This document shows, in pieces, positions 4,937 through 9,667 of a stretch of 64,000 nucleotides of DNA (positions within the stretch are counted from its first letter, which is position 1; every line of letters begins with the position of its first letter). The notes beneath the pieces are model-generated. The model was not told where the DNA came from. It saw only the letters and a program-made list of their open reading frames with translations, and made no database searches. The stretch lies in NCBI RefSeq assembly GCF_056712565.1, contig NZ_CM160072.1; one strand, 5' to 3'. Position numbers and translations under genes: made by a program.

Positions 4937-5426
4937 ACTGAAGAACCTATTTAATCATCATGTGCAAAACGTGCAAACACACCGCGGTGTCCGCATTCGA
5001 TTTCGGCGCATTGATAATCAGTCCGGCCTGAAAAGGTCGGGGAACTGATTATCGGATGATTACATTCTCCAGCATCAAAGCCTCGGGTTGAGTTGAAAGG
5101 TATTTACGGAGCGAATATTAACACGTAGTTATAGGAGGGATATGTTTCAGTAGAAAAAGTGTGATGTACTTTGGAAATTGAATGCCAACCCATTTACTGG
5201 AAAAGGCAGATGACACTGACGAATGCATGTTGAAGTACGCCTGAAATGGCCTCATCGGCTTTTCCCTTCGGGAGATTATTCTCCTTTTGTTAAATCCAGA
5301 ACATAAATATGCTCACCCATATTCGATGCTTGAAAAATTGAAGCCAATCCTGATAAGTAATTTTTTTGAAAGGGTATTTTCCGGATTCACACCGGCTTTG
5401 ATGAGTGAAAAACCGTTCTCTTTTAT

Positions 5427-5600
5427 TCAGTCAATCGTGGCGGTAATTGCTTCAATTGCATATCCCTGGCGAGCATAAGCGGGACTGATGGTATAGCCGA
5501 GCCAAAACACATCGCATTGCTGACGTAAATAGATATCACCAATCAAAACCTGCGTCATTTGTTGACAATGGCCAATTGAATATCGCGAGCAAGTGTAAGA
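5427..5600 (-). pseudogene. C-terminal fragment of a GNAT/RimJ-like acetyltransferase (possibly yjhZ-type pseudogene)
   Basis: Minus frame reads ...IGHCQQMTQVLIGDIYLRQQCDVFWLGYTISPAYARQGYAIEAITATID-stop (TGA at 5427-5429); GNAT-like C-terminal motif with no intact N-terminus. Confidence 0.3.
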
Positions 5601-5897
5601 ACTCCCAGCAAGACCCTGTAAATAATTCTGTGTAACTGCCCACGATTAAAGGTGGCCGCTCAGGCGGTCACCGTATTCGATAATAAATGGGTCTGGAAAA
5701 AGTGCAGCATCTGGCAGCGTAATGCAGGTAGCCCAGTTCAACTCTCACTACCAGTATGATCCCAAGTTCGAGCGCGGAATGTATCTGTATGAGCATCGTC
5801 GCTGTTTCAATAACATCATCGACTACTGTAACTCACTTTGCTATCACGGTAAGTTGCAGCCTAAAAGAGGGATGGAAAAAGGACGATTTTCCCCGCA

Positions 5898-6914
5898 ATG
5901 GGATATTTACATATTGATGGTAGAGGCATGAAGCCAAATGGAGGGAGCCGTCATAACCCTCTTGAAGCTGAAACAATAGCAGCATGGCTGGTGGCACATA
6001 AGGATGATATAGAGCGCCATTACGGGGAACCACTGTACAAAGTTGTTGGTGTTGTGACGCCATTTTCGGCGCAGGTTAATGCTATCAAAATGTCATTGCG
6101 TAAGCTGGAAATTAATGGCAAAGACGAGCAGGGTTTACTGACAGTGGGGACTGTGCACTCCTTGCAGGGGGCGGAAAGGGCGATTGTTCTCTTTTCTCCT
6201 GTCTACTCAAAACATGAAGATGGCAGGTTTCTTGATAGCAACAGCACTATCCTCAATGTTGCTGTCTCACGCGCTAAAGATAGTTTTCTGGTATTTGGCG
6301 ATATGGACCTTATCGAGATGCAGCCCGCATTTTCGCCGCGAGGGTTATTGGCAAAATATCTCTTTTCTTCAGATAATAATGCGTTGCAATTTGAGTTTCA
6401 GAAACGACAGGATTTAATTTCCGCACATACACAAATTTCAACGCTGCATGGTGTGGAGCAGCATGATGAATTTTTGAACAAGACTCTTGCCGGAGCTCAA
6501 AAGAAAATAACGATTATTTCCCCTTGGTTATCCTGGCAAAAAGTGGAGCAAACGGGATTTCTGGCATCAATGGCTTTGGCCCGTTCCCGGGGCATTGATA
6601 TTACCGTGGTGACGGATAAAAACTGCAATATAGCGCATGTCGATGATGATAAGCGTCAGGAGAAACAACATCTGCTGAATGATGCTGTTGAAAAGCTCAA
6701 TAAGATGGGTATCGCTACGAAATTGGTTAATCGTGTTCACAGCAAAATTGTGATTGAGGATGAAGAACTGCTGTGTGTCGGATCTTTTAACTGGTTCAGT
6801 GCTACACGGGAAGATAAGTATCAACGATACGATACGTCTTTGGTGTACCGTGGTGAAGGCGTAAAAAATGAAATAAAGGCAATATATGGTAGTCTGGATC
6901 AACGTCAGCTTTAA
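5898..6914 (+). CDS. yjhR: YjhR-like protein: C-terminal SF1 helicase motifs fused to a PLD-like domain; likely remnant of a larger gene
   Basis: 338-aa ORF with helicase C-terminal motifs ([22 protein letters not shown]) followed by a PLD-like region ([24 protein letters not shown]); upstream 5722-5931 frame has further helicase-like sequence in another frame. Confidence 0.6.
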
Positions 6915-7496
6915 ATGTGATGAGCCGTTCATGATACAGGAGTAGTAAAGGGCATATTTTACCAATGTTAAGGCGACTTTCCGTTTTATTGTGAGTCGCC
7001 TTTCCTGATTATAAATCTTATTGTTTACCTAATCATTTTCCTTTGCATAATGCGCCTGGGATTAATGGCGGGTGCTTTTAGGAATGAAAGAAAATGCAAG
7101 CAATAATATAATAATGGCCTAATTTCTTTGAACATCATTAAGCATATCATCATCGTCTATTTGCCAGAATCCGTCGACTTATAATCGCCAGAACGGCATA
7201 TCAGGACGGTGCTGCGAACGCTGTGGCCCAAAACGTTCCAGTAAACTGTGTAGATGTTCGTAGATTTCCGAGCCATAATCGAAAAGGCGCGGATGTCTAT
7301 TAAGGCATCCGGCTAATCTGTAAGCAATAACAACGGTTTATGCGGTGCGCGTTTTTCACCCTTGTGCCAGATTATTATATTGGCAATTGCCTGCTGTTCG
7401 AGCCCGCAAGTGAAGAGATATTACCTTGATCTCATTTGTTTTTTGTTGTCTACTCTGAGAACGAACAAGGACATCCCCCATGAATAAACTCCCCGC

Positions 7497-8477
7497 TCAC
7501 CTTTCGCGCCAAAACTGCAAAATTGCTTCTACAAATCTGTCAGAAATAATCCCCCGACGGGCTGCAGTGCTGAAATGACTGCTTCGCAGTGCCGTCGTCC
7601 AGTTCTCCGGTGACCGGTACGCTGAACCGTAATATCCCGTGCTTAAATCGTCCGGGTCTTCATCAGGCGCGTTCGTCAGTCCTCTTTCACCTTGTTGCTG
7701 GAAGTCGACGAAAATAATATTGGCTAAAACATTATTTTGATAATTGCCATAAATAGCTTCATACGAATGCGGGAAATTTTCTTTCCAGTACCAGGTGGTA
7801 TCGCCGCAAAACCACGGCGCGTCAGTAATATTATTAAGCTGAGAATGGTATTGTTTTAGATCCCTACGAAAGGCTTCAACCATATGATTAAAGTGTTGAG
7901 GGTGTGACGCGTAGTCACTGGTCATTAAGTCAAATTCGCCTTGCATCCAGCATGCGCCGAGGAATTTGTTCTGCGGATTTTTTGCCAGTGCGGCTCGCGT
8001 TCTGCTGACTAAATCCTGGTACAGCGGAGTATCCGTTCCCCAACGACAAGCATCATGGCTGGCTCCGTGCCGTTCTGAATATGTCCCTTCGCTGCCCGCG
8101 GTAAAAGCCGATCCGCCACGGCAACACGGAACGATAAGAATCCCTGCATTATCAGGAATGAAGGGCAGTAATTTCCGTGCAATATGCAGTGCCTGGCCAA
8201 CGGTGCCGTACTGTGTTTGATGATTCGTTGCCAGAGGATGGTGATAACCCTGCATATCCTGAACATCGTGTGGGCAGTGAGTCAGTGGAATAATGTCGTT
8301 AAAGTGACATGGCGGGCCTCCGGGATGCGTATGCGCAAATCTCGCTAATTGTTTAATTCTGGGATGAGGCGCATCTTCCCTGTCCGGTAATGGCAGTCCT
8401 TCGCCATACGCCATGGCATTAGACTGACCAGCAACGGTAAGAACATAGTAATAATCGGGCGATATTATTGCGTTCAT
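7497..8477 (-). CDS. nanS: N-acetyl-9-O-acetylneuraminate esterase NanS (YjhS)
   Basis: ORF 7497-8504; start set at MNAIISPDYYYVLTVAGQSNAMAYG to give 326 aa; downstream of nanM/nanC. Confidence 0.8.
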   Translation of the reverse strand: MNAIISPDYYYVLTVAGQSNAMAYGEGLPLPDREDAPHPRIKQLARFAHTHPGGPPCHFNDIIPLTHCPHDVQDMQGYHHPLATNHQTQYGTVGQALHIARKLLPFIPDNAGILIVPCCRGGSAFTAGSEGTYSERHGASHDACRWGTDTPLYQDLVSRTRAALAKNPQNKFLGACWMQGEFDLMTSDYASHPQHFNHMVEAFRRDLKQYHSQLNNITDAPWFCGDTTWYWKENFPHSYEAIYGNYQNNVLANIIFVDFQQQGERGLTNAPDEDPDDLSTGYYGSAYRSPENWTTALRSSHFSTAARRGIISDRFVEAILQFWRER

Positions 8478-8541
8478 ATAAATTTCGCGTAATTGAAATG
8501 ACAAATTGATAGCAGGGCCCCTTTACCGGGGCCCTGAAGCG

Positions 8542-9648
8542 TTAGTTTTGTACTGTGACTTTATTATCCTTCACAGTGATCAAAACTGAATCCGTCACCG
8601 CTTTGCCGCCTGCAGTTTCACCGCCAATAATCAATAGACTATTATTCCAGGGCAATGATACTCCGTAGGCCCGACCTTGCGATAATTCACCCGATTTATC
8701 CCATTTCCCGTTATGCCAAAGATGAATATCAGTGCTATATGATTTTTTCAGGCCTTCATGCGCATAGTTCTTACCGTTCTGGTAATTTTCTCGTGAACCT
8801 TTGAATCCGGCCCCTCCGGCAAATATAAGAGAATCATTGCTTATCCCCGCAAAACCGCCAGCTACGCCATCTGGTGATGAGACGGGAGCAAGCTTATTCC
8901 ATTTTAAATTATTACCGGTGAAATCAAGTTCAAATACGGCATCCGTTCGCAATCCTGGTTTGGCTTCGCCATTAATAAGCCAGGTTTTATCACCTTTATT
9001 CACAACCGCCGCACCAGCCGTTCCGTACCAGGGCGATTCGCCAGCGTAACTCCATTGCTGTGTTGAGGGATCAAAAGACAACAGAAACTTATTGAAGAAA
9101 TAATCTTCTGCTTTTTTGTCAAAATAGTGAGCATTGATTTTATCTATAGCGGTTGAATCTTTTCCAGCCTCGTTGAGATCTTCAAAATAGCCATTGAAGA
9201 TATTCTGGTTAACACCACCAGTAACATAAGCCTTGCCGTTGTGTACAAAAGTCACATGGCCCGCCATGCCCATCGGCGCGTGCGACATCAATTTAACCCA
9301 ACTATTGGTTTTGGGGTTGTATTTGTGTACGTCATTAAATACCTGAGTCAAGCCCTCGCTGTTTTTGCCAATGCCGCCAAACACATACAGATTGCCATCA
9401 ATAAATGCAGAGGTTGCTTGATCTCTTGGTCCGCCAGGGAATGCAGCTAACGCTGTCCATTTTTTATCTTTGGCCTGTGTATCCAGCTTGTACCATGCCG
9501 TACCTGCGCTACCTAAACCAATGTAGACAGTGTCGTTATCAATTGCTCCGGTACCACTTTTAAATGGCACAGGAGTTTCCGGTAATACAGATGCGTTTGC
9601 GGCAAATGAAGCCATCATGATAGCAAGCGCCGTTATTGTTTTATTCAT
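8542..9648 (-). CDS. nanM: N-acetylneuraminate mutarotase NanM (YjhT), Kelch-repeat periplasmic protein
   Basis: ORF 8542-9756; start set at MNKTITALAIMMASFAANA (signal peptide) for 368 aa; repeated Kelch-like GG/W motifs. Confidence 0.85.
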   Translation of the reverse strand: MNKTITALAIMMASFAANASVLPETPVPFKSGTGAIDNDTVYIGLGSAGTAWYKLDTQAKDKKWTALAAFPGGPRDQATSAFIDGNLYVFGGIGKNSEGLTQVFNDVHKYNPKTNSWVKLMSHAPMGMAGHVTFVHNGKAYVTGGVNQNIFNGYFEDLNEAGKDSTAIDKINAHYFDKKAEDYFFNKFLLSFDPSTQQWSYAGESPWYGTAGAAVVNKGDKTWLINGEAKPGLRTDAVFELDFTGNNLKWNKLAPVSSPDGVAGGFAGISNDSLIFAGGAGFKGSRENYQNGKNYAHEGLKKSYSTDIHLWHNGKWDKSGELSQGRAYGVSLPWNNSLLIIGGETAGGKAVTDSVLITVKDNKVTVQN

Positions 9649-9667
9649 TGTGACTGTCTCCTGTCTA

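Follow-up and report, generated by a model that had tools for sequence, protein, structure and literature searches.

We find that yjhR, as it stands in an E. coli K-12-like chromosome, is very probably a pseudogene that preserves the 3′ 35% (codons 765–1171 of 1171) of mkoC, a type II Mokosh anti-phage gene. The 64,000-nucleotide stretch of DNA that was analysed, referred to here as the window, comes from the right-hand end of the KpLE2 island, and within it yjhR occupies positions 5690–6914, over which it is 100% identical to BW25113. Both the pseudogene status of yjhR and its connection with Mokosh are already known; to these we add where exactly the gene broke, its junction with an IS, the intact ancestor at the same locus, and how far remnants outnumber intact copies. 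Biologically this detail adds little, and its value lies in the caution that it carries and in the worked example that it provides.

The yjhR remnant and the intact gene at the same locus

Across the locus the gene order runs: sgc genes, yjhP, yjhQ, topAI, a GNAT acetyltransferase fragment, yjhR, a restriction-endonuclease fragment, nanS, nanM, nanC, and fimB. The remnant closes the series of island genes ahead of nanS, at the edge of a KpLE2-like island, as the initial annotation of this DNA had placed it. The part that is annotated as yjhR is a 338-aa ORF at 5898–6914 (+), which corresponds to MkoC residues ~834–1171 and encodes the RecA2 half of a helicase, a linker, and a PLD nuclease domain. 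Translation and alignment to two comparison loci that carry the intact gene, L008 and L010, revealed a second piece of the same gene immediately upstream, at 5690–5881 (+), which represents MkoC codons ~765–829 in frame 0 and is now out of frame with the 338-aa ORF (frame 2). This upstream piece holds the Upf1-like motif IV region (LYEHRRC), and the earlier description of helicase-like sequence lying upstream in a different frame was therefore correct.

The two pieces are separated by a 1-bp deletion that shortens a G run from GGG to GG at 5880–5882 (+; about 5881), as located by pairwise and multiple alignment. The deletion is present in the window, in BW25113 (L001), and in L012, and it is absent from L011, L002, L005, L006, L008, and L010; K-12-type alleles thus share the G-run deletion, and all intact alleles as well as several other remnants are without it. 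The feature had been drawn from 5700 to 6914, of which the end stands and the start does not, as homology to the intact gene already begins at 5688–5690. A tblastn search with the intact protein matched residues 759–832 to window positions 5674–5895, and the NCBI annotation pipeline (PGAP) likewise records a pseudogene at 5674–6914, described as ‘helicase YjhR; frameshifted; incomplete; missing N-terminus’.

When protein databases were searched with the repaired fragment, all that came back were partial proteins or proteins cut off by contig ends, none longer than 716 aa, and a full-length homologue was not among them. The search was therefore continued with DNA, seeded with a metagenomic allele of greater length from this locus (L006), and in this way the intact gene was found in complete E. 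coli genomes; one intact allele has the accession WP_053290669.1 (from NZ_AP025214.2). A 569-aa allele (P0003) was considered as the full-length form and rejected, since it is cut by an IS3-family element; this is a separate truncation of the gene that leaves 569 codons. The intact gene, annotated as ‘helicase YjhR’ in L008 and L010, is 3516 bp long, encodes 1171 aa without interruption, and lies directly upstream of nanS–nanM–nanC–fimB, which is the position that the remnant occupies in K-12. Window positions 5688–9000 are colinear with L010 14289–17602 at 97.3% DNA identity with one gap, the 1-bp deletion at ~5881, and both pieces of the remnant align to one continuous intact gene. The proposal that yjhR is what is left at the 3′ end of a much larger helicase–nuclease gene is thereby borne out, with K-12 keeping codons 765–1171.

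Mokosh systems combine a COG1112/Upf1-like helicase with a PLD nuclease, and in type II the two are fused in a single gene (Millman et al. 2022 preprint). Against the PADLOC profile for MkoC of type II Mokosh, the intact orthologue aligned over positions 1–1135 of 1136 (1471.8 bits), and the repaired 409-aa K-12 fragment aligned over positions 742–1135 of 1136 only (E=7.8e-179, 595 bits). As sequence matches these lie far beyond chance, and on these alignments the assignment of the ancestor to the MkoC family is secure, the window copy being partial. The earlier suggestion that the gene resembles a defence gene can accordingly be given a name. The intact protein carries, in one polypeptide, an N-terminal region, a Upf1-like SF1 helicase (Pfam AAA_11 and AAA_12; Walker A GPPGTGKT at aa 294, motif II DEAG at aa 701, and motif III GDTEQ), and a C-terminal single-HKD PLD nuclease with the active site HSKIVIED at residue 1114; Pfam detected no kinase domain in it. 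A PDB sequence search found no solved Mokosh structure and gave only weak matches to helicase cores (IGHMBP2, DNA2). The ancestral gene would have coupled a helicase that senses phage nucleic acid to cleavage by the PLD nuclease, as proposed for Mokosh.

A paralogue of MkoC that is 68% identical was also observed, in L004 at 8548–12064, where it and a neighbouring integrase gene form part of a different genomic island of E. coli; its insertion site we take to be the pheU tRNA gene, judging by the flanking dsbD. The L004 paralogue is itself split into ORFs of 496 aa and 687 aa, and many database entries named ‘partial DNA helicase’ (650–716 aa) belong with this 68%-identical group.

How the gene broke and what is left of it

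Directly upstream of the remnant, at 5612–5689 (+), lies one end (~75 bp) of an IS256-like (ISEc39-like) element, recognised by megablast to the ends of IS256-family transposase genes and by alignment to L009 2501–2577. The inner side of this IS end is joined directly to MkoC codon ~765, and its outer end points away from yjhR. The simplest reading of the junction at ~5690 is a deletion that ran from inside a copy of the IS into mkoC. On this reading, the first step would have been a deletion with one end inside the IS256-like element, which took the promoter and the 5′ 2.3 kb of mkoC. In a later second step, the 1-bp deletion would have split the remainder and left the 338-aa ORF, with half a helicase core and an apparently intact PLD domain. 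The order of the two steps follows from strains of the L011 type, which share the breakpoint yet are without the 1-bp deletion and read through as ~397 aa (P0002; L011), so that the frameshift is later than the truncation. Many E. coli genomes have a 60-bp piece of this IS256-like end (window 5612–5671) near djlA as well, and it therefore behaves as a scattered IS-end relic.

The truncation removed residues 1–764, and with them the N-terminal region, Walker A, motif Ia, motif II, and motif III; a tblastn search with MkoC residues 1–758 found no counterpart anywhere in the 64-kb window. A ‘GSGKS’ at the start of the fragment was considered as a Walker A motif and rejected, because it aligns to MkoC residues 765–769 and the real Walker A is at residue 294. 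Among the features that mark type II Mokosh, the window copy has thus lost the ATP-binding helicase core (Walker A and motif II) and, through the 1-bp deletion at ~5881, the uninterrupted reading frame, and it keeps the C-terminal PLD nuclease with its HxK(x)4D motif.

Helicase motifs IV–VI are also kept. In SF1 Upf1-like helicases the AAA_12 domain makes up the RecA-like half on the C-terminal side, and Pfam places a remnant of it at 5940–6305 (+; ORF aa 15–136; E=6.7e-19, profile positions 81–194 of 195). Within the 338-aa ORF, motif V lies at aa 85–94 and motif VI (LNVAVSRAK) at aa 119–127, and residues Q90, G91, R94, and R125 are invariant in an alignment of 29 sequences. The PLD-family nuclease domain follows at 6480–6797 (+), with matches to Pfam PLDc_2 (E=2.9e-11) and to the PLDc active-site motif (E=7.4e-7), so that the order of domains given in the initial annotation, SF1 helicase C-terminal motifs and then a PLD-like domain, was right. 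This domain has one intact HxK(x)4D motif (H281-S-K-I-V-I-E-D288, window 6738–6761) followed by GSxN, and H281, S282, K283, D288, G295, S296, and N298 are invariant among the 29 homologues. Indeed, K-12 has kept all the residues that do not vary among the 29 aligned family members, including the HxK(x)4D motif and the arginine of motif VI, a degree of retention that is expected by chance at ~1% divergence.

AlphaFold modelled the 338-aa product with confidence (pLDDT 88.2, pTM 0.84), and Foldseek searches with the model gave different relatives for its two parts. The C-terminal domain matched NucT (6ehi, E=1.5e-10), Nuc (1byr, target TM-score 0.76), and Zucchini (4ggj), which were the top PDB matches and bear out a PLD-like fold; the RecA2 part (ORF residues ~1–170) matched Upf1 structures (2xzp, 6ej5).

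Remnants of this kind are common and intact genes are rare. Some of the 3′ remnant is present in 1729 of 5426 complete E. coli genomes (~32%), and 1475 of the 5426 have the K-12 arrangement across 5000–7100; the 5′ 2.1 kb of the intact gene is present in only 13. Because the breakpoint is shared, the wide distribution points to the inheritance of one old event and not to repeated selection. At the locus, remnants outnumber intact copies by ~130:1 in complete E. coli genomes, and a census of defence systems that accepts loose coverage would therefore over-count Mokosh II.

Constraint, expression and alternative readings

To assess the constraint on the remnant, we compared substitution patterns between intact and truncated copies. 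The dN/dS ratio was 0.10 between two intact genes (L010 vs. L008), 0.44 between the K-12 remnant and L010 (13 nonsynonymous and 8 synonymous changes), and 0.49 between two remnants. When changes were polarised with outgroups, 6 nonsynonymous vs. 1 synonymous fell on the K-12 branch and 5 vs. 3 on the intact L010 branch. The ratios and branch counts are consistent with relaxed constraint on the remnant, on counts that are small (7–21 changes). The open frame of 1.2 kb argues neither way, because it too is expected by chance at ~1% divergence.

Signals for expression were sought in the sequence before the ORF. A promoter scan found no sigma-70-like site on the + strand from 5200 to the ORF start, the counts of the promoter and terminator scan were no higher than in shuffled sequence, and the ATG at 5898 is not preceded by a suitably spaced Shine-Dalgarno-like sequence. 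The yjhR region is, moreover, deleted in the viable reduced-genome strain DGF-298. Mokosh no longer defends once either the PLD active site or the site at which the helicase binds ATP has been mutated (Millman et al. 2022 preprint). Given that Walker A mutants of Mokosh lose defence, and that in K-12 the ATP-binding half, the promoter, and the start are all gone, we infer that the K-12 remnant very probably gives no phage defence. Since the ORF is open and all family-invariant residues are kept, some residual nuclease activity of the product is conceivable.

We regard as improbable the best of the alternative readings: that the truncated product (338 aa in K-12, 397 aa elsewhere) has been retained as a domesticated fragment and acts as a stand-alone PLD nuclease, a modulator, or a decoy. 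Correspondingly, there is a slim chance that the YjhR product is expressed at a low level and works either as a PLD nuclease without a helicase or by modulating other defence systems, in which case YjhR would be a defence-gene fragment that has been re-used and is not simply decaying. Single-HKD nucleases such as Nuc function as small stand-alone proteins, and this precedent, together with the match to their fold seen here, speaks for retention, as do the intact PLD catalytic motif and family-invariant residues, a model that folds confidently in both its RecA-like half and its PLD domain (pLDDT 88), the presence of the remnant in about a third of complete genomes, and a dN/dS of 0.4–0.65, which is below 1. 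Against it stand the deletion of the promoter and start with no promoter-like site upstream and no usable Shine-Dalgarno before the ATG at 5898, the excess of nonsynonymous over synonymous changes (6 to 1) on the K-12 branch, the one old inherited event that the shared breakpoint implies, and the viability of DGF-298 without the region. Further independent damage, which is common, argues in the same direction: K-12 has acquired its additional frameshift, and the remnants of other lineages have been hit by IS1, by ISEc52 (including in ST131 strains), and by IS66.

That yjhR is instead a complete stand-alone gene for a small helicase-like/PLD protein, with only coincidental similarity upstream, has a negligible probability. 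Earlier annotations do list the 338-aa protein, as do protein collections (cluster P0004, 1335 member sequences), which would suit such a gene. Homology to the intact gene nevertheless runs for 208 bp upstream of the ATG, in the other frame and at ~97% DNA identity; strains without the 1-bp deletion read 397 aa (P0002, L011); and the AAA_12 match starts only at profile position 81 of 195. Motifs I–III, which an SF1 helicase needs, are missing, and we know of no SF1 helicase that works without them. The alignment to the intact gene and the tblastn search with intact MkoC refute the stand-alone reading, and the upstream sequence is part of the same gene.

Finally, it is just as remote a prospect that the ancestor belonged to another helicase–nuclease family (type I Mokosh MkoA/MkoB, Nhi, DrmC of DISARM, Hhe, or ProA), to which weak PADLOC matches (MkoA 63, MkoB 51, DrmC 21, and Hhe 18 bits) and NCBIfam matches (PLuB helicase-like, ProA, and Hhe, each scoring well short of its cut-off, which no NCBIfam family reached) might point, since MkoC scores 595 bits for the fragment and 1472 bits end to end for the intact protein, ~10 times any other model, and a single gene that encodes a helicase and then a PLD nuclease, with no kinase domain or second gene, is the definition of type II. 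We therefore continue to read yjhR as a decayed remnant of type II mkoC.

The neighbouring genes and comparison with known systems

The mkoC gene lies a short way upstream of nanS, where an island integrated at the leuX tRNA gene has its far end, and in L008 it is found among defence genes and mobile elements, a setting that fits type II Mokosh. There, it is followed by two intact genes, which encode a 290-aa phosphorothioated-DNA-binding restriction endonuclease (HNH_2; L008 11013–11885) and a 216-aa HNH endonuclease, both with weak matches to PADLOC mREase_IV models and the first also to an HNH model. The co-occurrence of intact versions with defence genes, which had been put forward as a check on the defence reading, is thus observed at this very locus.

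In the window both neighbours are decayed as well. What remains of the restriction endonuclease gene lies at 7151–7397 (−), with 90.3% identity to the intact L008 gene by blastn and a PGAP pseudogene call; it comprises the first ~80–90 codons, interrupted by a frameshift and a stop codon, and a 667-bp deletion has taken the HNH domain. The gene for the 216-aa HNH endonuclease has suffered a 626-bp deletion, and its remainder lies around 7391–7508. The small ORF ythB (‘protein YthB’, 32 aa; 7480–7578, +) proved, by the blastn map and by translation of the window and L008, to be a deletion chimera in which the first ~5 codons (MNKLP) of the 216-aa HNH gene are fused to a pre-existing 29-codon ORF. 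This 29-codon ORF runs antisense across the 3′ end of nanS. As the neighbouring restriction endonuclease gene is decayed too, the locus is a fossil defence islet. It documents how three defence genes next to a tRNA integration hotspot decayed step by step, and a few strains still have the ancestor in intact form.

At the core side of the islet, the nanS ORF is open in the window (7497–8504, −; 335 aa, TTG start), yet the PGAP entry for nanS reads ‘sialate O-acetylesterase, incomplete, missing C-terminus’ in several genomes. The junction of island and core coincides with the nanS stop codon, and identity to L008 rises from ~90% to 98% at window ~7494. On the other side of yjhR, between it and topAI, lies a decayed GNAT acetyltransferase gene (5313–5558, −), in which a 43-aa ORF (5427–5558, −) has a weak Acetyltransf_3 match (E=7e-4); other strains have a longer, 246-bp ‘GNAT family N-acetyltransferase’ CDS at this site.

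In L010 and L008, a P4-like satellite with integrase, delta, psu, sid, and alpha primase genes (L010 1–11700; L008 1–6900) is interposed between leuX and mkoC. Its attR repeat, CGAGTCCGGCCTTCGCACCA, is found ~300 bp upstream of mkoC in both, and the islet is therefore outside the satellite. The psu–int defence hotspot of P4-like satellites was considered as the home of mkoC and rejected, mkoC being beyond attR. This hotspot in the L010 satellite holds a 961-aa reverse-transcriptase gene with a 229-aa partner gene, which are probably another defence system. No leuX-derived attachment repeat was found in the window, so that the K-12 island boundary is not definable in that way.

The partial nature of yjhR bears on how it has been used in the literature. 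K-12 YjhR has been labelled a fused Mokosh by the DefenseFinder group, and its AlphaFold model was compared with MOV10L1 and PLD6; the accessible portion of that preprint makes no mention of its being a fragment (10.1101/2022.12.12.520048). As 338-aa YjhR has only the RecA2 half of the helicase, the comparison with MOV10L1 rests on a partial core. The structural stand-in for fused Mokosh is, in other words, the last third of an 1171-aa protein, without the ATPase half.

Among known systems, type II Mokosh is the closest relative. The intact orthologue is, like type II Mokosh, a single gene that encodes a Upf1-like helicase and then a PLD nuclease, and its 1171 aa agree with the 132-kDa monomer described for Mokosh II, the defence of which is narrow, extending only to an ssDNA phage in the panel used (2025 preprint). 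The window copy differs from it in being without residues 1–764 and in being frameshifted, which makes it a pseudogene and not a working member of the type. Type I Mokosh has the same two catalytic modules, and the fragment matches MkoA (63 bits) and MkoB (51 bits) weakly, at about one-tenth of the MkoC score; type I, however, consists of two genes, of which MkoA bears a Ser/Thr kinase, whereas here the modules are fused and no kinase is present.

The C-terminal domain is best matched in structure by Nuc (pKM101), NucT (Helicobacter pylori), and Zucchini/PLD6, with which it has the HxK(x)4D motif and GSxN in common; these are small stand-alone enzymes at 12–16% identity, whereas in YjhR the domain forms the effector part of a fusion with a helicase. 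The other half of the protein is related to the Upf1-like SF1 helicases (Upf1, IGHMBP2, DNA2, MOV10L1), as indicated by the match to the Upf1 fold and by AAA_11 and AAA_12 in the intact protein, but the window keeps only the RecA2 half and the gene has no known link to RNA surveillance. Lastly, Mokosh II and type IV restriction (RM IV) have been reported to co-occur in E. coli in 882 of 975 cases and to co-localise (Wu et al., preprint 2022.08.21.504612). The arrangement in L008, in which mkoC is directly followed by two nuclease genes that weakly match mREase_IV, agrees with this published co-localisation; the window differs in that it has all three genes only as fragments.
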